Shown: in pieces, positions 1,590 to 31,759 of the stretch
Layout of the letters: each line of letters begins with the position of its first letter
Numbering within the stretch: position 1 is the first letter of the stretch
From: Aeropyrum pernix K1
GTDB lineage: Archaea; Thermoproteota; Thermoprotei_A; Sulfolobales; Acidilobaceae
DNA: 32,000 nucleotides
NCBI RefSeq assembly: GCF_000011125.1
Contig: NC_000854.2
Coordinates: forward strand, 1,637,697-1,669,696
Direction of reading: 5' to 3'
Position numbers and translations under genes: made by a program
The notes under the pieces: generated by a model
Told to the model about the DNA's origin: nothing
What the model saw: only the letters and a program-made list of their open reading frames with translations
Database searches by the model: none

Positions 1590-2591
1590 TCACCTCACCC
1601 CCCTGATCATCCTCCTGTACCTGAATGGGTCCAGGGGCTCTTCGCTCCCTCCTAGGGTTCTGCCTGTGAGTTCTATGAAGACGTCTTCGAGCGTCGCCCT
1701 GGTTATGCTGATGGCCTTCACAGGAAAGCCGTTTAGAGCCCTGGCAAGCTCTGGCAACAGAGTGTCAGCCCGGTCTACCCTAACCGCAACCTTGCCCTCC
1801 ACAACGCTGGGTTCAAGGCCTAGTTTCTCTTTCAGTGCGAGTACGAGGGGCTCTGTGTATTCCGGATCCTTCAGCTCGATATAGACTGTCTCTCCCTTAA
1901 CTCTAGCCTTCAGCTCTTCTGGAGTGCCCTCGGCAACGATTCTCCCCCTATCTATGATCGCCACCCTGTCTGAGAGCATCTCAGCCTCCTCCATGTAGTG
2001 TGTGGTTAGTAGTATGGTCACGGCGCTCCTTTTGAGGTCCTCGATATACCTCCACAGGCTTCTCCTCGAGTGGACGTCGAGGCCCAGGGTGGGCTCGTCC
2101 AGGAAGAGGACCTTAGGGCTGTGGACGAGGCTCATTGCTATCTCAAGCTTTCTCCTCATACCACCGCTGTATGTAGCCACCCTCCTGTGAGCCGCCTCCA
2201 TAAGGTCGAGATAATCGAGGACCTCCCTAGTCCTCTCCCTTGCCTCGCTCGATGGCAGGCCGTAGAGCCTCGCCTGTATATACACGTTGTCCCAGCCGCT
2301 CATCTCATCATCAGCTGTCAGGTCCTGAGGGACTAGGCCTATGACCCTCCTAACATTTCCCGGCTCCCTCACTATACTGTAGCCAGCTATCCAAGCCTCG
2401 CCGCTTGTCGGCCTCAGGAGGGTACTCAGCATCTTTATAGTGGTAGTCTTGCCTGCGCCGTTAGGGCCTAGGAGGGAGAACAGCTCTCCCCTGGCTATCC
2501 TAAAGCTCACTCCGTCAACCGCCCTGAAGCCGCCATAATCTTTCACAAGCTCCTCAGCCACTACCATAGCTTCGCTTTCCAACGCGTTCAC
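1590..2591 (-). CDS. ABC transporter ATP-binding protein (DrrA/ABC-2 exporter type)
   Basis: Walker A GPNGAGKTT, signature YSGGMRRKL, Walker B VLFLDEPT and an H-loop TTHYMEEA. GTG start at 2591 (alternative ATG at 2567). Confidence 0.95.
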   Translation of the reverse strand: MNALESEAMVVAEELVKDYGGFRAVDGVSFRIARGELFSLLGPNGAGKTTTIKMLSTLLRPTSGEAWIAGYSIVREPGNVRRVIGLVPQDLTADDEMSGWDNVYIQARLYGLPSSEARERTREVLDYLDLMEAAHRRVATYSGGMRRKLEIAMSLVHSPKVLFLDEPTLGLDVHSRRSLWRYIEDLKRSAVTILLTTHYMEEAEMLSDRVAIIDRGRIVAEGTPEELKARVKGETVYIELKDPEYTEPLVLALKEKLGLEPSVVEGKVAVRVDRADTLLPELARALNGFPVKAISITRATLEDVFIELTGRTLGGSEEPLDPFRYRRMIRGVR

Positions 2592-3826: not shown

Positions 3827-4960
3827 ATGTACATGAGGGATGCCGACCCCCACCTCTTCAACCTACCAGCGGTGCTAGCTCATGCGTTCTCCTCAGGGGA
3901 GCTAGACTGGTTTGAACCGCTACTCATGGTTATGGAAGGGTTTAGCAGGCCCTTCACCTACATGGGCTATTATCAGGATGTCGACAGGGAGGTAGACCTT
4001 TCAAGCATGGAGAAGTATGGCGTGGAGCTTGTTAGGAGGTGGAAGCTAGGTTATGGAAACATTTTCATGGACCGTGTAACAGGCGCCTGGGCTCTAGCGA
4101 TGCCATCCCCCCTTTACCAGGAGTTCTTTAAAACCGCCAACGAAGCCTTCGACATACTTGTCGGCAGGGTGTTTCTCGATACAGTTAGGAAGCTTGGAGT
4201 GGAGAACTCGTACTACGCTCCTCCCAACGACATTAGGGTTAGGATAGACGAGAGTAGGAGCAAGAAGCTGTGCGGCACGGGAGTAGATATAGCCGGCGTG
4301 GGCGGTGATAGGAGCGCACTCTACTTCAACGCGTTTACGAACCTCCGCCACCCCGATCCCGAGCTGCCCTTCAAGGTCCTCAAGATACCCCGGGAGAAGA
4401 TAATAGAGAAGGGGTTCACGGATCCTAGGGAGTACTTTGCTTCTATAGAGGTTGACGGGGGCAGGCCTCCAAAGCCTGGTGAGTTCCGCGATATTCTGGT
4501 GGAGACAGTCAGAGAGGTTATGGGTGTTGAGGTCGTGGAGGCAGGGCTTTCAAAGGAGGAGAAGATTATATGGGATAGGTATAAGGAGATGCTAACGTCC
4601 AGCAGGTTCAAGATGAGGAGGTCCACGAGACTGTTTAAAGCGTCAATGCCGCCCGGTACCCGATACGGCTTTGCCCAGATAAAGTACCGGAAGCTGGTGC
4701 AGGCTTCTGTAGCCGTTGACAGCGAGGGCATTATAAGAGCCGCCATGATCACCGGGGACTTCCAGCTGATACCGGCAGATGCTGACGAGGAGATAGTTAA
4801 GGCTATACTTGGCTTTAAGCACAGCCAGTATGGCGAGGCTGCTGATAGGGTGAGGAGGCTTGTGGATGAGAGGGGGATTATGATAATAGGGGCTAGCGCA
4901 GAGGAGTTTATCAAGCCTGTTTTCTTAGCCGCGGAAAAAGCTTTGGAAGGAGGGGAGTAG
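3827..4960 (+). CDS. Divergent BPL/LplA-family (lipoate-protein ligase-like) protein
   Basis: The order of motifs resembles LplA: DPHLFNLPAV.., VELVRRWKLGYGNIFMD (LplA has RRxSGGGAVYHD), KKLCGTGVD (LplA has K-x-SGSA), and C-terminal ITGDFQLIP..EIVKAILG. The ATG at 3827 is preferred over the ORF-track start at 3743, which adds a Cys/Trp-rich leader. Confidence 0.4.
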   Translation: MYMRDADPHLFNLPAVLAHAFSSGELDWFEPLLMVMEGFSRPFTYMGYYQDVDREVDLSSMEKYGVELVRRWKLGYGNIFMDRVTGAWALAMPSPLYQEFFKTANEAFDILVGRVFLDTVRKLGVENSYYAPPNDIRVRIDESRSKKLCGTGVDIAGVGGDRSALYFNAFTNLRHPDPELPFKVLKIPREKIIEKGFTDPREYFASIEVDGGRPPKPGEFRDILVETVREVMGVEVVEAGLSKEEKIIWDRYKEMLTSSRFKMRRSTRLFKASMPPGTRYGFAQIKYRKLVQASVAVDSEGIIRAAMITGDFQLIPADADEEIVKAILGFKHSQYGEAADRVRRLVDERGIMIIGASAEEFIKPVFLAAEKALEGGE

Positions 4961-22598: not shown

Positions 22599-25500
22599 AT
22601 GGTTAGTCGGCGTGATTTCGTTAAGGGCTCAATCGCCATAGCCTCCCTCCTTGTAGCGGGAGCAGGACTGCAGCCGGTGCTATCACAGCTAGTGCGCCCG
22701 AAGTTCGAGAGAATAGCTCCAGACCTTCAGATGGGAGCTAACGTGAGGTACGTCTACTCGTCATGCCTGGGCTGCAACGTGAGGTGTGGGATAAAGGCTA
22801 GAGTTGTGAAGGTAGGAGATCTCGAGATTGTGGAGAGGATAGAGGGGAACCCGTACCACCCATACAACAGGGCTGTGTCGCTCAACGGCAATGGTAAGCT
22901 CGGTAGCCAGCACCTCCGGTTCTACCATCTACCCTACAATACCCCAGTCAAGGAGGCGCTAACCAAGTGGCACGGCACCCTCTGCCCCAGAGGGCAGGAT
23001 GGAATATACTACCTATACGACCCGTACAGAGTTCTGGTGCCACTCAAGAGGGCTGGTCCTAGGGGGAGTGGAAAGTGGAAGCCGATCTCCTGGGAGCAGC
23101 TGATAAGGGAGGTTGTCGAGGGCGGTGTGATAGAGGAGACGGGCGAGAGGCTGCCAGGCCTGAGGGACTTCTTCGTATACGGAAAGCTGAGGGAAGCCGG
23201 GTTTGAAGACCCCAACGCCATACTGTCTGATATGAAGAAGGACGTGCAGGAGATTCTCGAGTATGCGAAGAAGCCCGAGACTAGCTACGAGGATATAGTA
23301 ATGAAGATAGAGGAGTTTAAAGAGAAGTGGTCTAAAATATTGGGTGAGAAGGGCCTCAAGCTAGACGATATACTTATTGACCCTGACAGGCCGGACCTCG
23401 GGACTAAGGCTAACATGGTCGCTTACCTCAGGGGCAGGGGCCAGGGACACACCGACTACATGAGCGCCCGCTGGATAGCCGGTTTCGGTAGTGTTAACTG
23501 GCTGAGGCACACTAGCGCATGCCAGCTTGGATATTACGCTGCAAACTACCTCTGGGCGGGCTACCATGACATACAGCCAGATCCTGTTAGCAGCAAGGTA
23601 ATCATAATGGCCGGGGCTAGCATGGGCAGACTCCACCCGGGCACCACGGGCCAGGGCCTCCTGATATCCAGGGCTGGAGAGGGTGATCTCAAGATTTACT
23701 ATGTAAACCCCACTGCTCCGAGAACCGATGCTGGCGGTAACATAGTTTGGATTCCGATAAAGCCCGGCTACGACGCAGCTCTGGCATTCGCCCTTATCAG
23801 GTGGATAATTGAGAATGAGAGGTACAACAAGGAGTTCCTCGAGATACCCAACGAGGAGGCGGCTGAACGGAAGGGCTATCCTGTGCATAGCAACGCTACC
23901 TGGCTAGTCATAATGGAGGAGGGCCACGAGAAGTGGGGCGAGTATCTGAAGGCTAAAGACGTGGGGCTGGAAGACAGCGACAAGCCAGTCGTATTCACGG
24001 GAGAAGGCCTTGCAACTTACGACAGCGTTGATAATGCCGAGATAGACTGGGAGGGAGAGGTAGTTCTCACAACTGGCGAGAGAGTCAAGGTGAAAACATC
24101 ATTCCGGATCCTAAAGGACGAGGCCCTCTCCCGAAGCATAGACCAGTGGCTATCCGTAGCCAGCCCCTACGAGCCCGGCTCCAGCGAGTTCAGGGAATGG
24201 AAGGAGAAGGTCCTGGAGATGGCGAGGGACTTCGCCGAAGCGGCCCCAATGGCAGGCACATACGTCCACCGCGGTGTGGGGATGCACTCCAACGGTGAAT
24301 ACGCTGTCTGGGCATACAGGGCTCTCGACACCCTAGTAGGGAACTATCACAGGAAGGGAGGCCTCCTGGCCAGGGCAGGCCATACCAAATATAACAGCTA
24401 CGTCTACCATGTCGATAAGAAGGGCTTTGGAGAGCCTGTGAAGTGGGGGCCGCCGATAGACAGGCATAAAGCAAAGTATGAGGACACCTTAGAGTACTGG
24501 CTCAAGGTGAAGAAGGGGGAGAACCCGTACCCCGCTAAGAGGCCATGGTACCCGCACACTCCAGAAGAGAGCTACACCGAGATATTTGCAGGCATAGCGG
24601 AAGAGTATCCATACAAGATGGGCGCCTTGATACTATTCTACGCTAACCCAGTGCTCTCCGCCAACTATGGAGTGAAGTTCATAGAGGTGTTGAAGGATAC
24701 CAAAAAGCTACCCCTGTTCATAGCAATAACCACAACCATAAACGAGACCATGCTCTACGCCGACTATATCGTCCCCGATACAACTTACCTCGAAACAGGC
24801 ACGCTAGGGATGCAATACCTATACGCGAGCAGCGGTGGAGTGCTTCTAGCTGAGGCTGCGAGAAGCCCTGTCGTCATGCCGCTCACACAGAAGATAGGCG
24901 AGCCGGAGAGGTATGCTAGCTTCTGGGAGTTCTTCATAGACACTGGCAAGGCCCTCGGTATGCCGGGCTTCGGCAAGGGAGCGATAAAGGGTCTAAAGTA
25001 CCACGAGGGGAAGAGCTACGACCTCGACAGCCTGTGGGACTACATAATGAGGGTGTACGCCAACGCCGCCATGCACGCTAAGGACATGGGAATCATACCG
25101 GAAAACGTCCCGGAGGAGGAGGTCAAATTCGTGGAGGAGAACTACCCGGTGGCCAAGTTCAAGCACCTAATTCCCGACGAGTGGCCGTACGTAGCATACA
25201 TGCTCGCAAGGGGAGGAGTCTTCACCAGCTACGAAGAGTCATTCCATCCCAACGGAGTGTCTAAGAGGAAAGTGCCAAGCAAGAGGAAGAAGTTCAAGAA
25301 GACGCTAATGCTATGGAACGAGGACCTCGCCAAGACTAGGAACAGCGTCACTGGAGCCAAGTTCTGGGGAGGACCCAAGTACATACCGCCATCAACCTAC
25401 GCACCAGTCAAGGGCGGCTCAAAGAGCTTCTACGGAACACCCCTCAGGGAGATCTACCCGGAGAGCGAGTATCCATTCCACCTGGTATTCACCACAGGCC

Positions 25501-26096
25501 CGCTGTTCACGAAGCACAGGAGCCAGTTCTACTACGCTATAAAGCAGATATCCCCCGAGAACTACCTTGTCGTCAACCCGAAGGATGCTGAGAAGCTTGG
25601 CCTAGAGACAGGAGACGTTGTAGAGGTTGAAACACCAACTGGCAGGTTCAAGGCACCCGTCGTTGTGGAGCCCACCGTCCCACCCGGCGTCATAATGGTT
25701 CCATACGGCATGGGGAGGTGGGCAGACACAGTTGTAAAGAAGCCAAGCTACTTCGAGGTCAAGGACAGCAGGCTAGCGAGCCTCATAAACGAGCTGCCGG
25801 AGAGGGAGGAAATACCCGAGGAAGCTGTCAACCCGGTGAAGAAGCTCCCCGAGCTCAAGAAGAAGGTGCTCTTCACAAAGAGCACCCCAGCATACTATAA
25901 CCAGGCAGAGCCAGACAAGTGGAGGTTCAACGGAATAACCCCCAACGTGGCGGAGATGAGCGACCCAAGCCTCGGAGGATGGCCGCTTCTAAGCATAATA
26001 GGGGCAGCCCAGGCATACTACTTCAACGTAGCCAGGATACGGAAGACGGGGGAGAAGCACGAGTTCGAAAAGACCTATCCATACATAGTATGGTAG
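22599..26096 (+). CDS. Molybdopterin (bis-MGD) oxidoreductase catalytic subunit, Tat-exported, unusually large (1165 aa); tetrathionate/polysulfide/thiosulfate-reductase-like
   Basis: Tat motif MVSRRDFVKG. N-terminal FS0 motif C-x2-C-x3-C (SSCLGCNVRCG) with a distant fourth Cys (GTLCPRG). C-terminal MGD-binding barrel (VVNPKDAEKLGLETGDVVEVETPTGRF..VMVPYGMG) followed by an extension of about 130 aa. Confidence 0.9.
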   Translation: MVSRRDFVKGSIAIASLLVAGAGLQPVLSQLVRPKFERIAPDLQMGANVRYVYSSCLGCNVRCGIKARVVKVGDLEIVERIEGNPYHPYNRAVSLNGNGKLGSQHLRFYHLPYNTPVKEALTKWHGTLCPRGQDGIYYLYDPYRVLVPLKRAGPRGSGKWKPISWEQLIREVVEGGVIEETGERLPGLRDFFVYGKLREAGFEDPNAILSDMKKDVQEILEYAKKPETSYEDIVMKIEEFKEKWSKILGEKGLKLDDILIDPDRPDLGTKANMVAYLRGRGQGHTDYMSARWIAGFGSVNWLRHTSACQLGYYAANYLWAGYHDIQPDPVSSKVIIMAGASMGRLHPGTTGQGLLISRAGEGDLKIYYVNPTAPRTDAGGNIVWIPIKPGYDAALAFALIRWIIENERYNKEFLEIPNEEAAERKGYPVHSNATWLVIMEEGHEKWGEYLKAKDVGLEDSDKPVVFTGEGLATYDSVDNAEIDWEGEVVLTTGERVKVKTSFRILKDEALSRSIDQWLSVASPYEPGSSEFREWKEKVLEMARDFAEAAPMAGTYVHRGVGMHSNGEYAVWAYRALDTLVGNYHRKGGLLARAGHTKYNSYVYHVDKKGFGEPVKWGPPIDRHKAKYEDTLEYWLKVKKGENPYPAKRPWYPHTPEESYTEIFAGIAEEYPYKMGALILFYANPVLSANYGVKFIEVLKDTKKLPLFIAITTTINETMLYADYIVPDTTYLETGTLGMQYLYASSGGVLLAEAARSPVVMPLTQKIGEPERYASFWEFFIDTGKALGMPGFGKGAIKGLKYHEGKSYDLDSLWDYIMRVYANAAMHAKDMGIIPENVPEEEVKFVEENYPVAKFKHLIPDEWPYVAYMLARGGVFTSYEESFHPNGVSKRKVPSKRKKFKKTLMLWNEDLAKTRNSVTGAKFWGGPKYIPPSTYAPVKGGSKSFYGTPLREIYPESEYPFHLVFTTGPLFTKHRSQFYYAIKQISPENYLVVNPKDAEKLGLETGDVVEVETPTGRFKAPVVVEPTVPPGVIMVPYGMGRWADTVVKKPSYFEVKDSRLASLINELPEREEIPEEAVNPVKKLPELKKKVLFTKSTPAYYNQAEPDKWRFNGITPNVAEMSDPSLGGWPLLSIIGAAQAYYFNVARIRKTGEKHEFEKTYPYIVW

Positions 26097-26711: not shown

Positions 26712-27893
26712 TTATCCCCCTTGTTTTTTGGCTAGCCCCAACATTGCAACCGCTCCTCCTCCACCCGCTAACAACGCCACGGCAGCACCCGCCCACACGG
26801 GCAGGCTTGCCATAGCAATGTTCCCAACACTCCACCCCAGCCCCATGGCGAAGTAGACCACGCCAAACCCCAGCCCCCTCAGGCGGGGTTCCAGAGAGTC
26901 TGCCACTACAGACCGGAAAACACTCTGAAACCCTCCCATGGCCACGCCCCAGAGTATGGCTGCCAGGGCTAGTGGGGCGCCCAGTAGCACTGCCAGGCTT
27001 GACGCCGCCGCCACAATGGGGACGAGGGCGACTACACCGCGTGTGACCTTATCGTAGGCGACTCCCAGGGCGAGAGCGGCCAGGGCGTCGACAAGCATAG
27101 CGACAGCGTAGGCTCCAGCTATTAAAGAGGCGTCAACACCCTGAACGCTGTATCTGAAAGAGGCGTGGATCCAGTGTATGAACCCCGCCATAGAGAGCCC
27201 AGCAGCAGCAGCCAACGGCGCCACCCTCCCAAACGGCGGATAGCCTCCTGGCGGCTTCTCGGCAGACTTTAGACGGGGGTAGAGTATGTAAGCGAGGGTG
27301 AGTAAGAGAAGGGAGACGAGGGCCGGAACCCCTAGAAGCGCGAAGACGCCACTATAACCAAAACCGCTGGAGAGAGCCGCCATGACCAGCAGGGGCCCCG
27401 CAATAGCCCCCACCTGGTCCATGGCCTCGTGAACCGCATACACCACCCCACGGCCCAGGCCGCCCGAAACCTCGGCTAGAATAGCATCTCTAGCAGGAGC
27501 CCTCACGCCCTTACCAGCCCTCTCAAGCAGGACAAGTAGGAAAGCCTCCTCCCACCTCCCCGCAAAAGCGAGGAGGGGGACAGCAACAAGGTTAACAGTA
27601 TAGCCTAGAAACACAAGCCCCCAATAGGCACCGCTAGACCCGACCCTATAGGCGAACAAGCCCCCGAAGAGCCGCGCAACATAAGCAACAAGATCACCCA
27701 CAGAAACAGCCGCAGCAACAACAAGCCCCGCCTCAAGAAACTCCAGATAAGGCCCAACTATACCCCGAGCACCCTCGTAAGTCAAATCGGCGAACAGCGA
27801 AACCAAGCCAAGCAGAACAAAAACCACAACCCCCCTAGACACCACAACTACACCCCGGGAAAACCATAACACACCCACAGGCAACAAAACCAA
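26712..27893 (-). CDS. MFS transporter
   Basis: About 12 hydrophobic helices and an N-terminal LFADLTYEGARGIVGPYL motif typical of an archaeal MFS subgroup. The TTG at 27893 lies only 6 bp from the tRNA 5' end, so the real start is probably an internal GTG. Confidence 0.8.
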   Translation of the reverse strand: MVLLPVGVLWFSRGVVVVSRGVVVFVLLGLVSLFADLTYEGARGIVGPYLEFLEAGLVVAAAVSVGDLVAYVARLFGGLFAYRVGSSGAYWGLVFLGYTVNLVAVPLLAFAGRWEEAFLLVLLERAGKGVRAPARDAILAEVSGGLGRGVVYAVHEAMDQVGAIAGPLLVMAALSSGFGYSGVFALLGVPALVSLLLLTLAYILYPRLKSAEKPPGGYPPFGRVAPLAAAAGLSMAGFIHWIHASFRYSVQGVDASLIAGAYAVAMLVDALAALALGVAYDKVTRGVVALVPIVAAASSLAVLLGAPLALAAILWGVAMGGFQSVFRSVVADSLEPRLRGLGFGVVYFAMGLGWSVGNIAMASLPVWAGAAVALLAGGGGAVAMLGLAKKQGG

Positions 27894-27899
27894 TAAGGA

Positions 27900-27978
27900 G
27901 GGCCCGTAGCTCAGCCAGGACCAGAGCGCCGGCCTTCGGAGCCGGCGGTCCCGGGTTCAAATCCCGGCGGGCCCGCCA
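27900..27978 (+). tRNA. tRNA-Arg (anticodon UCG), intron-less, CCA encoded
   Basis: Hand-folded cloverleaf. Acceptor GGGCCCG/CGGGCCC, D arm GCTC-AGCCAGGACCA-GAGC, anticodon arm CCGGC-CTTCGGA-GCCGG, variable CGGTC, T arm CCGGG-TTCAAAT-CCCGG, discriminator G, then CCA. Confidence 0.93.
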
Positions 27979-28119
27979 CAACACACTCTAATCAATCATA
28001 AACCTACGCTTAGAATATATCGGTAACCGAGACCTAAGAAGGGTGCCGGGACTATTGCATGGTAGATTATCAGAAAGAATTCTATACATTAATCTGGAAG
28101 GTTAGGGTACAACTTTTAG

Positions 28120-28263
28120 CTATGGTACCCTCTTGAGGTCCTCGTCAAACGTTGCTAGCACCCTGATATTATAACGCTTGCATGTTATTGTTATCTATGC
28201 GTCACTGGGTGCAAGCCTGTATTGTCTGATCGCCTCTACTAGCTCTTTAGGATCCTGGTGATT
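28120..28263 (-). pseudogene. Remnant of the C-terminal third of a PIN-domain (vapC) gene with an internal TAG
   Basis: The minus-strand translation is NHQDPKELVEAIRQYRLAPSDA*ITITCKRYNIRVLATFDEDLKRVP*. It is homologous to the C-terminus of the cassette-3 vapC (..LLSNDSLIAATCKHYSINTIATREYRG). It has no N-terminal half. Confidence 0.6.
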
Positions 28264-28296: not shown

Positions 28297-28749
28297 CTAT
28301 AATTTTGTGTAATCTTGGTTGTCGAGTAAGTAGTATGCTTTAACTCCAATTTTCTGAGCATTATCCTTCATGACTTTATCATTAGTTATCAGGATTCCAT
28401 CTACATGCTTAGCTGTTGCGATAAAGTATGCGTCAACCGCCCTACAACCGGTGATGAGTGCTATCTCAGCGGCTTTGTCGTGTAGTTCTTCTTCTCTTAC
28501 TACATTTACATGCTTCAATGTCGTGTCTACTATCCGAAGGGCTTGCTCTGGAGGGATTCTACGTACAAGGACTGCTCGGAGCTCTATTTCAAAGAGGAAA
28601 GGCTCATAAACTATTACATCCCGGAGAGATAGCTTATCGAGAACTGTTCTAGACCTCTCATGCCTCTCCGGGTCTCCAGGATATAGCAGGTAGTAGTCGG
28701 CAAAAACGCTAGTATCAATCACAACAACGTCTATAACTTGATCTGGCAA
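28297..28749 (-). CDS. vapC: PIN-domain toxin (VapC)
   Basis: PIN acidic residues sit in the usual contexts (VVIDTSVF.., ..YEPFLFE.., ..AVDAYFIATA.., ..ILITNDK). The start abuts the stop of the upstream antitoxin. Confidence 0.85.
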   Translation of the reverse strand: MPDQVIDVVVIDTSVFADYYLLYPGDPERHERSRTVLDKLSLRDVIVYEPFLFEIELRAVLVRRIPPEQALRIVDTTLKHVNVVREEELHDKAAEIALITGCRAVDAYFIATAKHVDGILITNDKVMKDNAQKIGVKAYYLLDNQDYTKL

Positions 28750-28944
28750 TTACCTCCTCTCCTCCACGAACTCCTTAACAGTATCTCGATCAGCCTTGAA
28801 CATGTATTTTCCGGCTTCGTCTTTGAAACCCCTGAAACTCTTTCGGACAACCACTACTTCCAGCTCTTCCCCCTCTCTGAGCACGACCTCTCCAATGGGC
28901 TTCAGGACTCCTTTTTCATACCTGACTCGGATAACCTTTGACAA
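28750..28944 (-). CDS. DUF104-type antitoxin (VapB-like)
   Basis: MSKVIRVRYEKGVLKPIGEV.LREGEELEV is the archaeal DUF104 antitoxin signature. TTG start. Immediately upstream of the PIN gene. Confidence 0.75.
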   Translation of the reverse strand: MSKVIRVRYEKGVLKPIGEVVLREGEELEVVVVRKSFRGFKDEAGKYMFKADRDTVKEFVEERR

Positions 28945-29108
28945 GCCTAGTCCCCATTGTAGCTAGTGTAGTTAGGACTCTAAGCCTTTAACCCTAAGCA
29001 TGTTGCATTATTATCAGCCTCGAGGATGCAGGCTGAGTATCAAGATGGAGTGCATGTTGCATCTTATCATGAAATAAATGCAACACAGGTATTTATAGAG
29101 CGGGTCTC

Positions 29109-29150
29109 CGGAGCCGGAGGTCCCGGGTTCAAATCCCGGCGGGCCCGCCA
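29109..29150 (+). repeat. Copy of the tRNA-Arg 3' part (att-like), 41/42 identical to 27937-27978
   Basis: CGGAGCCGGAGGTCCCGGGTTCAAATCCCGGCGGGCCCGCCA versus tRNA CGGAGCCGGCGGTCCC...GCCA. The 5' half of the tRNA is absent. Confidence 0.9.
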
Positions 29151-29171
29151 CTTATATAACTTTTACATGCT

Positions 29172-29615
29172 TTATTCTACCTTGAGTTTTCTAATTGCTT
29201 CTGTTATGCTCCATACCTCTATTATAGCATGATTTTTTATGTTGTCGAAGTCTTTATCGTTTGTAATTAGAATAGCCTTTGACCTTAGACAGGCCGCAGC
29301 GTGGTATATGTCGGCGAACTCGGTTTCTGGCATATAGGGTTTTACAATTTCTATATCTTCCTTTTTAGGCGTTACTACAGTTACCTTAGCTTCTAGCAGG
29401 CGGTATAGGGTTTCAGCTTGCTCTCTTATGTTTGGTACCCTGGAGGATAATCGGTGAAACCATTTCTTATATTCCTCCAATAATATGTTATCAGCTACTA
29501 GCTCTATGTCTGGGTCTAATAGGAGCCTTAGGAGCAGTTTTGTTGCCGCTGTGTATCCTGATTTGAAGGCTGCTATGAACAAGTTTGTGTCAACCATCAA
29601 TCTTCTCTTTGGCAA
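29172..29615 (-). CDS. vapC: PIN-domain toxin (VapC)
   Basis: LMVDTNLFIAAF.., ..FADIYHAAACL.., ..ILITNDKDF. Overlaps the upstream AbrB-type antitoxin by 26 nt. Confidence 0.85.
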   Translation of the reverse strand: MPKRRLMVDTNLFIAAFKSGYTAATKLLLRLLLDPDIELVADNILLEEYKKWFHRLSSRVPNIREQAETLYRLLEAKVTVVTPKKEDIEIVKPYMPETEFADIYHAAACLRSKAILITNDKDFDNIKNHAIIEVWSITEAIRKLKVE

Positions 29616-29850
29616 TCTTGTTGGCCTCCTCCTCCACCTTTCTGCCGAGCTCCTCCAAGTCTAGGCCAGACCTGGCTACCTCTTCAGCTATCTCTCTGGC
29701 AAGCCTCTCCACATCCACCCTCTTCAACACTAGCAAGTCGTTTTTTACATTAATAATAATGAAAGTGTCCCCCTTTTTCAACCCCAGCTTCCTCCGGAGC
29801 CTACTAGGGATAACAATACGACCCCTATCATCTACAACGACCAGACTCAA
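29590..29850 (-). CDS. vapB: AbrB/SpoVT-type antitoxin (VapB)
   Basis: The sequence VVDDRGRIVIPSRLRRKLGLKKGDTFIII is a swapped-hairpin AbrB DNA-binding motif. TTG start is preceded by GGTGAT. Confidence 0.8.
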   Translation of the reverse strand: MSLVVVDDRGRIVIPSRLRRKLGLKKGDTFIIINVKNDLLVLKRVDVERLAREIAEEVARSGLDLEELGRKVEEEANKIAKEKIDG

Positions 29851-29851
29851 A

Positions 29852-29897
29852 CATTATCACCCATTTATCCCATTTATCCCACTACTCCTATAAAAGT
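29852..29897 (-). promoter_or_regulatory. Candidate vapBC promoter/operator: TATA box plus tandem 9-mers
   Basis: On the minus strand, ACTTTTATAG (29888-29897) is followed by GGGATAAAT-GGGATAAAT-GGGTGATAATG directly before the TTG start. On the plus strand this is CCCATTTAT x2 at 29860-29877. Confidence 0.45.
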
Positions 29898-30030
29898 ATA
29901 CAACACAATTCAGGCGCAGTAATGCTAAACACGTTTCCAGATTATCGTATCGGATATCTATGTCGATAGCCGCTCTTGAAGAACGTTTCCAGTTGATGGT
30001 TTCCGCTGGAAACGCTGTTTATAAGTCTCG

Positions 30031-30082
30031 GGCCTTTGGAGCTGCTGGGGCCCCCCGGTCCCGATTACCGGTGGGCCCGCTA
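30031..30082 (+). repeat. Degenerate copy of the tRNA-Arg anticodon-loop-to-3'-end region (att-like remnant)
   Basis: GGCCTTTGGAGCTGCTGG..GGTCCCGATTACCGGTGGGCCCGCTA aligns to tRNA 27931-27978 with substitutions, an insertion of about 8 nt and a deletion in the T-loop. Confidence 0.7.
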
Positions 30083-30217
30083 CAAAACCCGCAAAACCAT
30101 CATTAACGTATGCTTAGAATATATCGATAACCGGGACCCTAAAAAGACGCCGAGCTCCTTGCAGGGTAGATTATCAGGCTGATAATACCACTAGCCTGGA
30201 AGCTTAAGGTATAACTT

Positions 30218-30662
30218 TTAGCCACGGTATTCTCTTGTTGCTATAGTGTTTATGCTGTAGTGTTTGCAGGTTGCGGCTATTAATGAGTCGTTCGATAGTA
30301 GTCCGTATTTGACGGCGATCCTGCCCGCTTCTTTTACTATCTCCATGGTTATGGGTAGGACTACTAGTCTTCCTTCGTCGTAGAGTTCTTCTAGAAAGGA
30401 TTGTAGTATGACGTATCCCTGTAGTATATCCTTTTCTGTCCTGGATAGTGAGGCCCTCATATTGTAGAATCTTGTATTCACCGTACTTTTCCATGTAGAG
30501 GAGTTTTAGGAGGTTGAATGCCACCTCACTATAAACTACTATAGCGTTTACGGCAAACTTGTATCCTCCCTCAATAATATCCTTAGCAGCAAGATCACTT
30601 GTAAAGTAGCGGAGGATGACGCTACTATCCAGGAACACTGCCTCTCTCAGAGATGTACTCAT
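30218..30662 (-). pseudogene. vapC: PIN-domain toxin (vapC) disrupted by a 1-nt frameshift
   Basis: The N-terminal PIN half (AVFLDSSVILRYF..VYSEVAFNLLKLL) is in the frame of ORF 30204..30662. The C-terminal half (..LLSNDSLIAATCKHYSINTIATR) is in the frame of ORF 30218..30481. The switch must occur near 30465-30500, a stretch that contains GGAAAAG. Confidence 0.7.
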
Positions 30663-30855
30663 AATAATCCTCCTCCCCAGTCTCTCGTTTTCTCACCTTC
30701 ACAATACCGAAGAACCGTCTAACACCTTTACTGCCGCTCCTCTCTTTTATTTCAAGGATAAGCTCCTCTCCTTCTTCCAGGTCGAGAGGCTCCAATGGCT
30801 TTAGCATGCCCTTTTCATACTTAGCGCGAATAACCTTAGACACTGCAACCACCAT
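30625..30855 (-). CDS. DUF104-type antitoxin (VapB-like)
   Basis: ..SKVIRAKYEKGMLKPLEPLDLEEGEELILEI is homologous to the 28750..28944 product. A GTG at 30843 would give MSKVIRAKY, matching its paralogue. Confidence 0.75.
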   Translation of the reverse strand: MVVAVSKVIRAKYEKGMLKPLEPLDLEEGEELILEIKERSGSKGVRRFFGIVKVRKRETGEEDYYEYISERGSVPG

Positions 30856-31007
30856 TGGCTATAAGGCGGGATCGATCCTCTAAGCCTTTACCCTAAGTAC
30901 GTTGCATATCTATCTATCTATTATGATAGGATGCTTGGATTATCTAGATGGAGTATATGTTGTATTCATCCATGCACTAATGCAAGACTAGTATTTATAG
31001 CGCTGTT

Positions 31008-31052
31008 CTTCGGAGCCGGCGGCTCGCGGGTTCAAACTCGCGTCGGGGCTGC
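31008..31052 (+). repeat. Diverged tRNA 3'-part copy (att-like remnant)
   Basis: CTTCGGAGCCGGCGG (31008-31022) is identical to tRNA 27934-27948. It is followed by a divergent T-arm-like segment CTCGCGGGTTCAAACTCGCG and a different acceptor strand, TCGGGGCTGC. Confidence 0.7.
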
Positions 31053-31142: not shown

Positions 31143-31442
31143 TTATGATGTGAGTGGATAGGATTCTATGGTGCTTGATGTAATTATTATGAGGCGGGGT
31201 TTCTCCTTTAGTAACTCTAGGGCTTTTACTATATTTCTTGCTAATTTATCTAGGTTGTCTTTCCTTACGGGTTCAGCTATATAGATTATTCCGTACTTGG
31301 CATCCTTTCTTAGGTAGGGTTTGAGGAAGTCACTGTCCCGTGTGAGAATTATTCTCCTGCTGTCGTTGGCTATGCGTGCTACTTGCTTGTCGCTGATGCC
31401 TCTATAGCCTGTATCTGGTATCCACTCTACATCGAGGCCCAT
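31143..31442 (-). CDS. DUF5615/Mut7-C-like PIN-related putative toxin; N-terminus lacks a canonical start
   Basis: ..RIILTRDSDF.. and overall similarity to partners of DUF433 antitoxins. The same frame upstream encodes NLLADENVPRPLVKLLRD (to 31496), the usual N-terminus of this family, but has no ATG/GTG/TTG there. Confidence 0.55.
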   Translation of the reverse strand: MGLDVEWIPDTGYRGISDKQVARIANDSRRIILTRDSDFLKPYLRKDAKYGIIYIAEPVRKDNLDKLARNIVKALELLKEKPRLIIITSSTIESYPLTS

Positions 31443-31482: not shown

Positions 31483-31725
31483 TCAGCTAGTAGATTCGAC
31501 GGCGACCACCTCGACTTTCCTTAGAGTTTCCAGCGCGTATCGTAGGGCCTCGTAGACCGCCTCTATTGGTATGCGGTAATTATCGGCAACCTCTTCTACA
31601 CTCCATCCATTGGCTAGCGCCTCGAGTATGTCATCTACTGTTATGCGTGTTCCCTTAACGGTTGGCCTACCGCCACGCCTACCAGGCACAACCTCTAGCC
31701 ACTTATATCCTGGCAAGAGAACCAT
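31483..31725 (-). CDS. DUF433-type antitoxin
   Basis: GGRPTVKGTRITVDDILEALANGWSVEEVADNYRIPIEAVYEALRYA is the DUF433 signature. The ATG at 31725 is preferred over the TTG run at 31749. Confidence 0.75.
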   Translation of the reverse strand: MVLLPGYKWLEVVPGRRGGRPTVKGTRITVDDILEALANGWSVEEVADNYRIPIEAVYEALRYALETLRKVEVVAVESTS

Positions 31726-31759
31726 AACAGCATTCACCAACAACAACAACTGCTCTAAC

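Follow-up and report, generated by a model that had tools for sequence, protein, structure and literature searches.

Repeat triads beside tRNA-Arg fragments in Aeropyrum pernix: putative integrase arm sites kept by integrase-less toxin-antitoxin cassettes

The window (32,000 nucleotides of Aeropyrum pernix K1, contig NC_000854.2, 1,637,697 to 1,669,696, numbered here from its first letter) shifts in composition at an intact tRNA-Arg(TCG) gene, where host DNA of ~55-59% GC ends and AT-rich toxin-antitoxin cassettes of ~1 kb each follow downstream. Every cassette terminates in a tRNA-Arg 3' fragment that represents an att core, i.e. a copy of the tRNA 3' part from the anticodon loop onward. Genes and tRNA-related segments are as follows.

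27900-27978, plus strand: intact tRNA-Arg(TCG), the attL-type site heading the array (ARAGORN; Rfam RF00005, 65 bits)
27979-28135, no strand assigned: P' arm remnant of cassette 1, homologous to 30075-30237
28297-28749, minus strand: cassette 1 toxin, VapC with PIN domain (Pfam PF01850, 2e-15)
28750-28944, minus strand: cassette 1 antitoxin, AF2212-like VapB (Pfam PF01954, 4e-17)
29109-29150, plus strand: F2, tRNA-Arg 3' fragment and att core copy, 98% identical to the tRNA 3' part
29172-29615, minus strand: cassette 2 toxin (PIN / PIN_3; Pfam)
29590-29850, minus strand: cassette 2 antitoxin (MazE / AbrB type; Pfam)
30031-30074, plus strand: F3, degenerate tRNA-Arg 3' fragment and decayed att core, read from the sequence
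30075-30203, no strand assigned: P' arm remnant of cassette 3, from homology to that of cassette 1
30204-30662, minus strand: cassette 3 vapC, two overlapping ORFs (30204-30662 and 30218-30481)
30625-30855, minus strand: cassette 3 antitoxin, AF2212-like VapB (Pfam)
31008-31052, plus strand: F4, tRNA-Arg-like 3' fragment (sequence and BLAST)
31143-31442, minus strand: cassette 4 toxin (DUF5615 / Mut7-C-like; Pfam)
31483-31749, minus strand: cassette 4 antitoxin (DUF433; Pfam)

The window thus presents an array of integrase-less mini-cassettes stacked on a tRNA-Arg gene. In each, a toxin-antitoxin pair with a promoter of its own lies between a short P' arm on the left and a conserved P arm of ~105 bp on the right, and an att core copy follows; none of the window's cassettes contains a gene for an integrase or excisionase. 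A proximal TATA-like box predicted for cassette 1 vapB (TTAAAG, minus strand, 28986-28991) is accompanied in related cassettes by a conserved AAAGGCT(A/T)A box, and the cassette 2 antitoxin gene has a predicted TATA box of its own (CTTTTATAG, minus strand, 29888-29896). Being split over two reading frames, cassette 3 vapC is probably a pseudogene. The P' remnant of cassette 1 starts much like the integrase-side arm of loci L052 and L080 (AATATATCGG) and contains a single copy resembling the type B motif described below (ATTGCAT, 28054-28060), followed by GATTATCAG at 28065-28073, while that of cassette 3 has CTTGCAG as its B-like copy, together with the palindrome GATTATCAG-G-CTGATAAT. F3 was missed by the BLAST search for tRNA-Arg fragments. 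The T arm of F4 differs (CGCGGG / CTCGCG) yet base-pairs, which suggests that this core was brought in from another host. Cassette 4 continues beyond the window end, with a type C arm (TTGTCCC-N17-GGGACAA, then TTTAAG) and a fragment F5 at window-equivalent positions ~32060-32153.

Ahead of F2, F3 and F4, the P arms hold two direct copies and one inverted copy of a short motif, followed by a TTTATA box; the positions that the initial annotation had given for motifs, boxes and GGAGC(C) starts proved exact when read off the sequence.

28999-29008, plus strand: cassette 1, type B motif copy 1, direct, CATGTTGCAT
29053-29062, plus strand: cassette 1, type B motif copy 2, direct, CATGTTGCAT, 54 bp past copy 1
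29078-29085, minus strand: cassette 1, type B motif copy 3, inverted, ATGCAACA
29092-29097, plus strand: cassette 1 TTTATA box, 6 nt past copy 3 and ~12 nt before the att core
29931-29940, plus strand: cassette 2, type A motif copy 1, direct, ACGTTTCCAG, then ATTATCG
29983-29992, plus strand: cassette 2, type A motif copy 2, direct, ACGTTTCCAG, 52 bp past copy 1
30006-30014, minus strand: cassette 2, type A motif copy 3, inverted, CTGGAAACG
30018-30023, plus strand: cassette 2 TTTATA box
30899-30907, plus strand: cassette 3, type B motif copy 1, ACGTTGCAT
30957-30965, plus strand: cassette 3, type B motif copy 2, decayed, ATGTTGTAT
30980-30986, minus strand: cassette 3, type B motif copy 3, inverted and decayed, ATGCAAG
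30994-30999, plus strand: cassette 3 TTTATA box

The tRNA-like GGAGCC begins at 29110 in F2 and at 31012 in F4, and the GGAGC of F3 at 30038. In F2 and F4, homology to the tRNA continues upstream of GGAGCC, covers the anticodon-stem strand and stops at the TATA box (D2), so the fixed distance is really that between the TATA box and the edge of the att core. Each stretch of 107 nt ahead of a TATA box was shuffled 20,000 times with its dinucleotide content preserved; an exact triad of two direct and one inverted copy then arose in 7 of 20,000 for cassette 1 (k>=8) and in none of 20,000 for cassette 2 (k>=9), which places both far beyond chance. Across the AT-rich island of ~13 kb, a k>=8 triad in a 107-nt window is confined to the P arms of these two cassettes. 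Upstream of the cassette 3 TATA box, the corresponding 107 nt lack an exact triad even at k>=6; the triad here is a decayed copy.

Shared geometry among the three cassettes had been taken as a sign of a functional module rather than residual homology. For cassettes 1 and 3 this does not hold, because they are plain homologues over both flanks (72-82% identity; families D1, D4, D7, D9, D10) and so provide no independent evidence. Nor is cassette 2 otherwise unrelated, as had been thought: GATTATC / GATAATC elements are common to the cassettes and it aligns weakly with the others (D3, 68%). Independent support for a module comes from other genomes instead, since a wider search found the same layout upstream of ~45 tRNA-Arg 3' fragments in ~35 genome bins of Desulfurococcales and Acidilobaceae. 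The order is a direct copy, 42-54 bp, a second direct copy, a spacer of 13-16 nt, the inverted copy, 3-6 nt and TTTATA, which in turn lies ~12 nt before the core. Four motif types occur in it, A (TGTTTCCA), B (TGTTGCAT), C (TGTCCCA) and D (TGTTTCAG), and they are spaced as follows.

Type A: copy 1 to copy 2, 52 ± 1 bp; copy 2 to copy 3, 21-24 bp; copy 3 to TATA, 3-6 nt; TATA to GGAGC, 18-21 nt
Type B: 54 bp, with the other three distances as in type A
Type C: 42 bp, with the other three distances as in type A
Type D: 52 bp, with the other three distances as in type A

Between types, the distance from copy 1 to copy 2 differs by about one helical turn. Many of the fragments with the module form arrays spaced at 1 kb, locus L061 having five. 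The TTTATA box is kept in more than 40 related P arms, a conservation that is inflated because the genome scan for relatives demanded TTTAWA; among fragments at the same loci found by BLAST only, ~10 of 12 have the repeat module and ~8 of 12 a TATA-like box. The module is conserved and independent of its cargo, which ranges from VapB of the AF2212 type (with motif types A, B and C) to restriction-modification and primase-polymerase genes; the VapB of cassette 3 (type B), for example, is nearest to that of locus L069 (type C).

The same motifs turn up next to genes of an integrase family (~430 aa; PF16795 plus an N-terminal helix-turn-helix, HTH; 77 homologues) located directly downstream of tRNA genes. 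In at least 84 loci the integrase gene starts 57-220 nt past the tRNA gene and on the same strand, and these P' arms have a TATA box and, at the integrase start, an element-specific motif in inverted repeat. The type B arm of L080 reads TGTTGCAT-N15-ATGCAACA, the type D arms of L087, L113 and L107 read TGTTTCAG-N14-CTGAAACA, and a further motif, type E (GTTCAC), is found in P' arms of at least 50 loci. Six complete type E elements with both att ends (L089, L124, L131, L159, L163, L166) carry one and the same motif in both arms, and their far P arm shows two direct and one inverted GTTCAC in the layout of the window. While P and P' arms of a single element are observed for type E only and in part for L052, where tRNA-Arg is followed by a P' arm starting like those in the window and by a frameshifted PF16795 integrase gene, type B and D motifs occur in P' arms at integrase loci and in P arms at other loci. 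Among the best 80 of 414 metagenome loci neither the type A nor the type C motif was seen in the P' arm of an integrase, so the integrase link is one of analogy for two out of three types in the window.

Matches of the N-terminal region to HTH models are weak (PF13560 in P0030, P0034 and P0040; also HTH_19 and HTH_3). The predicted recognition helix co-varies with the arm motif, being GSLHNYL in type E, RTLVYRM in type B, R(V/I)T(L/M)WRLL in types D and G (half-site GTTTCA) and AALSRYL or SSLHRYL in type F, a pattern that could be mere co-inheritance within element lineages. The arm motif is independent of the core, i.e. of target specificity: type E is paired with five tRNA targets (Gly, Arg, Ser, Thr, Glu), and tRNA-Arg is used as a target by types A to G.

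Together, these relatives lend weight to the first of two readings in the initial annotation, in which the motifs are integrase or excisionase arm sites next to the att core. Given that integrase-bearing relatives have the same motifs to either side of the core, it is the better-supported of the two, and we consider it probable that the triads are arm-type and operator sites of cognate integrases, retained by integrase-less cassettes. The window cassettes lack integrase and excisionase genes, so their sites can act only in trans or are relics. The following scenario may be envisaged. With 3' halves of tRNA genes as their targets, tyrosine integrases of the HTH-bearing PF16795 family would insert plasmid-like elements and use the P-arm triad as their arm-type site set. 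Across the core, the parent elements have this motif again, as an inverted repeat that spans the promoter and start codon of the integrase gene, and the sites would then be dual, serving recombination as well as autoregulation. Types A, B, C and D here, and E, F and G elsewhere, would then correspond to separate integrase lineages, and the sites in the window may be used in trans by a cognate integrase whose gene lies elsewhere, or may be decaying relics, as cassette 3 and F3 appear to be. Arm sites of archaeal integrases would be new: they have not been described previously, and according to a review, characterised archaeal integrases need no accessory sites (PMC8371274).

Could the triads instead bind another element-encoded protein, such as a winged-helix regulator or a replication initiator that recognises iterons of a parent plasmid origin? 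Locus L131 does have a gene for a 217-aa wHTH protein whose 3' end overlaps copy 1, along with a D5_N / DUF5906 helicase, and a circular form would cluster five to six copies within ~250 bp, which looks iteron-like. We nonetheless regard this as unlikely, given that in many genomes the module is preserved almost unchanged in mini-cassettes devoid of a replication gene, that the motif co-varies with the HTH helix of the integrase, and that its copies flank the att core and overlap the integrase start.

The second reading of the initial annotation, a regulated promoter that fires into the tRNA-like segment, is plausible for the TATA box. As a promoter standing alone, without any role in recombination, it would use the inverted repeat as operator and produce either a small tRNA-like RNA or an antisense RNA to the toxin gene of the next cassette. 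Strong conservation of TTTATA at a fixed distance would suit this, as would the convergent toxin gene of the next cassette and the layout of type G relatives, where an inverted repeat is directly followed by TTTATATCC, a unit predicted to drive the integrase gene. However, the motif is found beyond the core too, a third copy lies 42-54 bp further upstream, the P arm of type E elements has the triad and no TATA box, and the sequence downstream varies between cassettes. Moreover, the box lies so close to the tRNA fragment that the predicted start, ~29 nt past its first T, falls inside the variable loop, and hence no defined RNA product is evident. To our minds, a promoter of this kind is therefore a doubtful explanation of the module. 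Nothing we found favours antisense RNA against the next toxin as its purpose, and parent elements have the integrase gene in that place.

Within the arm-site reading, the P-arm TATA box is probably an outward-facing promoter that points into the core, and it is lineage-specific. With the form (T)TTTATA(A/T) it fits the TATA consensus in more than 40 P arms and belongs to the same class as the integrase-promoter boxes of P' arms; there is no clear BRE on either strand, and comparison with the integrase-promoter set slightly favours the plus orientation. The type G P' arm upstream of the integrase gene (CATGAAACG-TTTATATCCTC) is a near match to type A P arms (TGGAAAC..TTTATATCCTC). The P-arm TATA boxes of the window have no sense-strand gene after them; in parent elements the integrase gene is located 100-200 nt downstream, across the core. 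In a circular or tandem form the promoter would thus read across att toward the integrase side, and TBP bound to the box could also bend the arm onto the core. The general recombination architecture does not depend on the box, since type E lacks it.

Binding of the motifs by VapB had also been proposed, and antitoxins commonly do bind repeats by their promoter, as copy 1 just upstream of the vapB proximal promoter might suggest. An operator for autoregulation of the toxin-antitoxin operon is, however, largely refuted and in our view very improbable: the AF2212 antitoxin family occurs with types A, B and C, and near-identical VapBs with types B and C, so motif type and antitoxin family do not go together; restriction-modification and plasmid cargo are flanked by the same module; and toxin-antitoxin operons carry their own TATA box ~40 nt from the start codon. 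There is equally little to be said for a folded single-strand element, be it an integron attC-like site or a structured RNA with copy 2 paired to copy 3. Although complementarity of the inverted repeat is kept across types A to E and RNAalifold finds a 7-bp hairpin, type A has zero compensatory pairs and a covariation term of ~0, single substitutions go uncompensated, and a hairpin leaves the third direct copy and the P' copies unexplained. Finally, that the repeats are functionless, due to chance or to plain residual homology of duplicated cassettes, as the homology of cassettes 1 and 3 and the decay in the latter might imply, is refuted by the shuffles, by conservation of one geometry in ~45 loci from many genome bins with four sequence types, and by the six complete type E elements, and almost certainly wrong.

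Returning to the arm-site reading, a more far-reaching option, which we put forward tentatively and as rather less likely than not to apply in full, is that mini-cassettes of ~1 kb with toxin-antitoxin and defence genes form integron-like arrays at tRNA-Arg in Desulfurococcales, and that HTH-bearing PF16795 integrases act on lambda-like arm sites to mobilise them in trans. Should this be correct, Archaea would have their first example of an arm-site architecture. TBP at the core-abutting TATA box would then double as a bending factor, and the box as an att-spanning promoter to which the integrase gene is linked in the circular form alone. In addition, junctions of a promoter with a tRNA 3' half could supply raw material for the split tRNA genes of the same order.

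Desulfurococcales are indeed known for promoter-equipped 3' halves of split tRNA genes, whose origin has been proposed to lie in mobile-element integration (PMC3218864). In these, too, the 3' portion of a tRNA is immediately preceded by a TATA box. A split-gene half was nevertheless rejected here, given the intact tRNA-Arg at 27900-27978, a TATA box only 18-20 nt before GGAGCC and a degenerate F3; nor is there a leader able to form a bulge-helix-bulge with a 5' half. Integron cassette arrays resemble the window in their tandem ~1-kb single-function cassettes with a recombination site at the end and in toxin-antitoxin cargo with its own promoter. Unlike theirs, the site in the window is a tRNA 3' half with duplex arm sites in place of a folded attC, with no adjacent intI or Pc; an attC site was rejected on the basis of 0 compensatory pairs, the third direct copy, no IntI-type gene being found and a core that is a tRNA 3' half. 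Arrays of short cargo units that lack a recombinase and are set between partial tRNA repeats are also typical of integrase-less cis-mobilisable elements, tRNA tandem accretion, tycheposon cargo satellites and 'gene capture' in archaeal chromosomes. Our cassettes differ in forming archaeal arrays of uniform ~1-kb units, in cargo that is almost always a toxin-antitoxin pair and in keeping the full P-arm site set, with mobilisation being presumed.

Among integrases, the class II archaeal enzymes ('pNOB8-type', following the lambda paradigm) likewise keep their gene intact on integration and target the 3' part of tRNA genes, and their HTH domain was proposed to regulate integrase transcription (PMC8371274). 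By comparison, the integrases considered here have their att core outside the gene, even though PF16795, the Pfam model matched by their catalytic domain, is of the SSV type. The minus strand of the core still encodes the peptide PPGFEPGT, in no long ORF: reading frames that cross the core on this strand (MAGPPGFEPGTSGS...) end after ~45 codons and match nothing in Pfam. With no long integrase-like ORF on that strand from the core, an SSV-type (suicidal) Int(C) remnant in the P arm was rejected. A bacterial parallel is IntS of KplE1, encoded next to a tRNA gene at attL by an autorepressed gene whose promoter overlaps arm sites (PMC2951348). There, too, the integrase gene adjoins a tRNA-borne att and sites for recombination proteins extend over its promoter, which is the P' arm layout seen here; KplE1 differs in being a bacterial prophage whose sites are also bound by the RDF TorI (PMC2951348), and our elements have an additional triad and TATA box on the opposite arm. 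Also close in design is lambda attP with its arm-type Int sites (P1, P2, P'1-3) and sites for bending proteins on either side of the core. Differences are that the archaeal PF16795 integrase has an HTH N-terminus instead of the lambda arm-binding fold, that Xis and IHF are missing, and that a review of archaeal tyrosine recombinases gives no arm sites (PMC8371274), the binding proposed here being predicted. Similar to lambda, element-specific repeats, direct as well as inverted, are nonetheless present on both arms, the integrase has a separate N-terminal region predicted to bind DNA, arm specificity is separate from that for core and target, and a bending-factor site abuts the core, which in our case would be the TATA box for TBP.

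The triads that the initial annotation described upstream of the tRNA-Arg fragments, i.e. a motif in two direct copies and an inverted one (copies 1, 2 and 3) with a TATA box after them, are real and belong to a conserved, widespread module; all motifs and their positions proved exact on reading the sequence. They lie beyond an intact tRNA-Arg gene, in DNA of ~44% GC arranged as cassettes of 930-1170 bp, each consisting, in this order, of a short left arm (P') after the preceding core (the tRNA-Arg 3' part, att), a minus-strand toxin-antitoxin pair, a triad arm of ~105 bp (P arm) and a tRNA-Arg 3' fragment (F2 to F5 in cassettes 1 to 4).

27900-27978: intact tRNA-Arg(TCG), end of host DNA (53-59% GC)
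Cassette 1: AF2212-type VapB antitoxin, PIN toxin
Cassette 2: MazE/AbrB-type antitoxin, PIN toxin
Cassette 3: AF2212-type VapB antitoxin, frameshifted PIN toxin
Cassette 4: DUF433 antitoxin, DUF5615 toxin

The toxin-antitoxin operons have a TATA-like box of their own, ~40 nt before the antitoxin start. The vapC of cassette 3, probably a pseudogene, is spread across two reading frames that overlap (ORFs 30204-30662 and 30218-30481), while its vapB (30625-30855) appears intact. Downstream of its own vapC, cassette 1 has a stretch (28105-28135) homologous to the 3' end of a cassette-3-type vapC (30207-30237), a remnant suggesting that cargo was replaced or that two cassettes fused. Fragment F5, the fifth, lies just beyond the window end on L001, the contig of the window's own genome, behind TTGTCCC-N17-GGGACAA and TTTAAG. 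Both F4 (window 31008-31052) and F5 (L001 9290-9335) have a T arm unlike that of the host tRNA, albeit still paired (CGCGGG / CTCGCG), and locus L021 has this variant, too (GGGTTCAAACTCGCG); their sequence suggests that another host, one whose tRNA-Arg differs, was the source of these two cores. Rfam reported tRNA only in the whole window, and no integrase was found within 10 kb past its end, where proteins of 511, 192 and 241 aa lack an integrase domain. Two proteins are encoded on the host side of the junction, one of 1165 aa (22599-26096), twin-arginine-like at its N-terminus and probably a molybdopterin oxidoreductase, the other a membrane protein of 393 aa (26712-27893). Exact T-loop-like matches (GGTTCAAATC, GGTTCAAACC) on the minus strand of the host part (630-639, 3909-3918), called tRNA by neither ARAGORN nor Rfam, could be intron-containing tRNAs or chance.

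Chance is an unlikely source of the triads, as became clear from the shuffled-sequence check that the initial annotation had proposed. For each TATA box, the 107 nt preceding it were shuffled 20,000 times with dinucleotides preserved. An exact triad arose seven times for cassette 1 (k>=8) and never for cassette 2 (k>=9), and of all 107-nt windows across the 13-kb AT-rich island only those at the P arms of these two cassettes contain a triad of k>=8. The P arm of cassette 3 yielded no exact triad; this cassette is a decayed homologue of cassette 1, both flanks being 72-82% identical, so the geometry these two share is residual homology. Hence, the earlier argument that common geometry reveals a functional module rather than homology fails for cassettes 1 and 3, yet holds through the same layout in other genomes. 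Nor is cassette 2 otherwise unrelated, as had been claimed: its sequence type differs, yet GATTATC / GATAATC elements are common to them. Homology between fragments and tRNA extends 5' of GGAGCC across the anticodon-stem strand and stops at the TATA box, so that the fixed distance noted before is that from TATA box to core edge.

The initial annotation had also proposed a genome-wide search for this geometry beside tRNA-like segments. A scan of one genome per GTDB species with the pattern TTTAWA-N12-24-GGAGC-N10-11-GGGTTCAAA returned 71 loci, of which roughly half belong to Desulfurococcales or Acidilobaceae bins. BLAST with the tRNA 3' half uncovered extra fragments in these loci, many ~1 kb apart (five in L061, three to four in L021, L026, L046 and L049), and nearly all fragments outside intact tRNAs are preceded by the triad layout in one of four sequence types.

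Motif types of P arms before tRNA-Arg fragments (direct / inverted motif; count; copy 1 to copy 2)
Type A: TGTTTCCA / TGGAAACA; ~25; 52 ± 1 bp
Type B: TGTTGCAT / ATGCAACA; ~6; 54 bp
Type C: TGTCCCA / TGGGACA; ~12; 42 bp
Type D: TGTTTCAG / CTGAAACA; ~3; 52 bp

Copy 1-copy 2 spacing thus varies by one helical turn among types, with 21-24 bp between copies 2 and 3, 3-6 nt from copy 3 to TATA and 18-21 nt from TATA to GGAGC. Since the scan pattern itself included a TATA-like hexamer, the TATA count is biased; among ~12 fragments found by BLAST only, ~10 have repeats and ~8 a TATA-like box. The second common motif, GATAATC / GATTATC, is found in two to three copies in the P arm and in another two just past the vapC stop, in P' arms of type A/B cassettes (L038, L046, L061; window 28065-28073 and 30167-30186), as well as at the integrase start in L106 and L107 (TGTGATAATCTTGG).

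The link to an integrase comes from L052, where tRNA-Arg is followed by an arm opening like the window's left arms and then, on the same strand, by an integrase gene with a frameshift, coding for a helix-turn-helix-like N-terminus and PF16795. Its reconstructed sequence as query retrieved 77 homologues of ~420-450 aa. In at least 84 loci from genomes and metagenomes, the integrase gene lies 57-220 nt downstream of a same-strand tRNA gene (Arg, Gly, Ser, Thr or Glu), and the interval always contains, besides a TATA box, a lineage-dependent 6-10-nt motif as an inverted repeat. The integrase N-terminal region aligns as a helix-turn-helix whose second helix varies with motif type.

Integrase-side motifs (motif; loci; second helix)
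Type E: GTTCAC; at least 50; GSLHNYL
Type D: TGTTTCAG; at least 8; R(V/I)T(L/M)WRLL
Type G: CGTTTCATG; at least 9; as type D (half-site GTTTCA in common)
Type F: GTTCCCG; at least 9; AALSRYL / SSLHRYL
Type B: TGTTGCAT; L080; RTLVYRM

Types B and D are motifs of window-type P arms, and autonomous elements of types A or C are absent from the 84 integrase loci listed. Six whole elements of 6-11 kb with both att copies (L089, L124, L131, L159, L163, L166) have at their far end GTTCAC, ~45 nt, GTTCAC, N16, GTGAAC and ~20 nt to the core, which is the triad of the initial annotation made of the element's own motif. By sequence likeness, the left arms of the toxin-antitoxin cassettes are truncated integrase-side arms, type 1 resembling L052 and L080, type 2 (CTTATAAACC) L106 and L107. 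Some relatives show a reverse arrangement with the integrase at the P-arm end (L090 6584-7960, L099 1707-3130, L012 6037-6900) and TGCAA-type repeats before or after it, then a tRNA fragment. A serine-recombinase-like gene (1737-2255, minus strand) adjoins the L052 integrase pseudogene, and one P(type B)-core-P' junction, at L052 2700-2900, has the opposite orientation to the tRNA, as though a segment had flipped; L080-L082 have an annotated resolvase gene after the integrase. Searches of IMG/VR with the DNA pattern gave two chance matches only, and a viral search with the integrase profile found none.

To our minds, the motifs are probably arm-type sites of this integrase, a predicted role that was one of two readings initially offered and is now better supported than the other, a regulated promoter: motifs B and D recur at integrase loci, six elements carry the triad and the helix varies with the motif. 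An arm-binding integrase of lambda type predicts such helix-motif matching together with separate arm and core specificities, and indeed the type E motif is paired with five different tRNA targets, which argues that the two are separate in this family. Co-inheritance, however, would yield the same helix-motif pattern, and the winged-helix protein of L131, a small integrative plasmid that also encodes a D5_N/DUF5906 helicase, is an alternative ligand of the motifs instead of the integrase.

As for the regulated promoter, it is a plausible role for the TATA box only. The type G integrase promoter, an inverted repeat directly before TTTATATCCTC, has nearly type A P-arm sequence, so the P-arm unit resembles a promoter-operator aimed at the core. 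In a circle or tandem array, transcription from such a promoter would cross att and run toward the integrase side; in the window, it would enter the next cassette. Type E P arms lack the TATA box, which is therefore not part of the general recombination layout; an attractive alternative is that TBP might bind there as a bending factor beside the core. The predicted start falls in the variable-loop region of the tRNA fragment, hence no usable tRNA half would be made, and a split tRNA gene is ruled out by the intact tRNA (compare PMC3218864).

Binding by VapB, as had been suggested, or another antitoxin operator is rejected, for motif type does not track antitoxin family. AF2212-type VapB occurs with types A, B and C, the window's cassette 3 VapB (type B) is nearest to that of L069 (type C), and other cargo includes a type IIG-like restriction enzyme (L017), a primase-polymerase-like gene (L066) and HEPN/MNT pairs; module and cargo are thus separate parts. 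Larger proteins beside P arms (Eco57I-like methylase-type, primase-polymerase-like, NERD, Csx1) are cargo rather than recombinases. Larger elements at these tRNA sites are rich in defence genes (L087 11500-21275, L086 4640-6034, L017, L052 3996-7126), among them BREX-like PglX/BrxL, a Piwi (Argonaute) protein, an Eco57I-like enzyme and RAMP/Csx1-like genes. A fold in RNA or single-stranded DNA is unlikely, the one structure that RNAalifold predicts for 22 type A arms being a hairpin of copies 2 and 3 that lacks compensatory changes; ORFs crossing the module on the plus strand differ in frame between types A and B and are not coding, and an SSV-type Int(C) remnant is rejected, as minus-strand peptides through the core stop early and match no Pfam family.

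If lineage-specific sites flank att on both arms and lie over the integrase promoter, this would amount to lambda-style control of integration and excision in Archaea, and the family offers directly testable protein-DNA pairs. It also explains the stacked tRNA-Arg fragments and toxin-antitoxin pairs recurrent in hyperthermophile genomes, and a promoter joined to a tRNA half would be a concrete route toward the split tRNA genes that occur in Desulfurococcales. Such stacks break assemblies, many contigs stopping at the tRNA, and may confuse tRNA annotation. L001-L006 and the majority of L088-L167 show breaks at the tRNA/att repeat; those contigs that belong to the window's own genome stop at F2, and dozens of metagenome contigs begin 100-350 nt before the integrase gene.

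According to a review of tyrosine recombinases in Archaea (PMC8371274), the characterised integrases act unaided on a simple core, needing neither arm sites nor directionality factors, and no arm sites are listed there; in the open-access literature, we found no description of such cassette arrays or of archaeal arm sites. By analogy, the window-type layout may work like the arm sites of lambda attP, and the integrase side like that of KplE1 IntS, whose promoter overlaps attL arm sites and is autorepressed (PMC2951348). The arrays themselves resemble integrase-less cis-mobilisable elements, tycheposon satellites and integron toxin-antitoxin cassettes, but differ from these in recombination site and domain of life.
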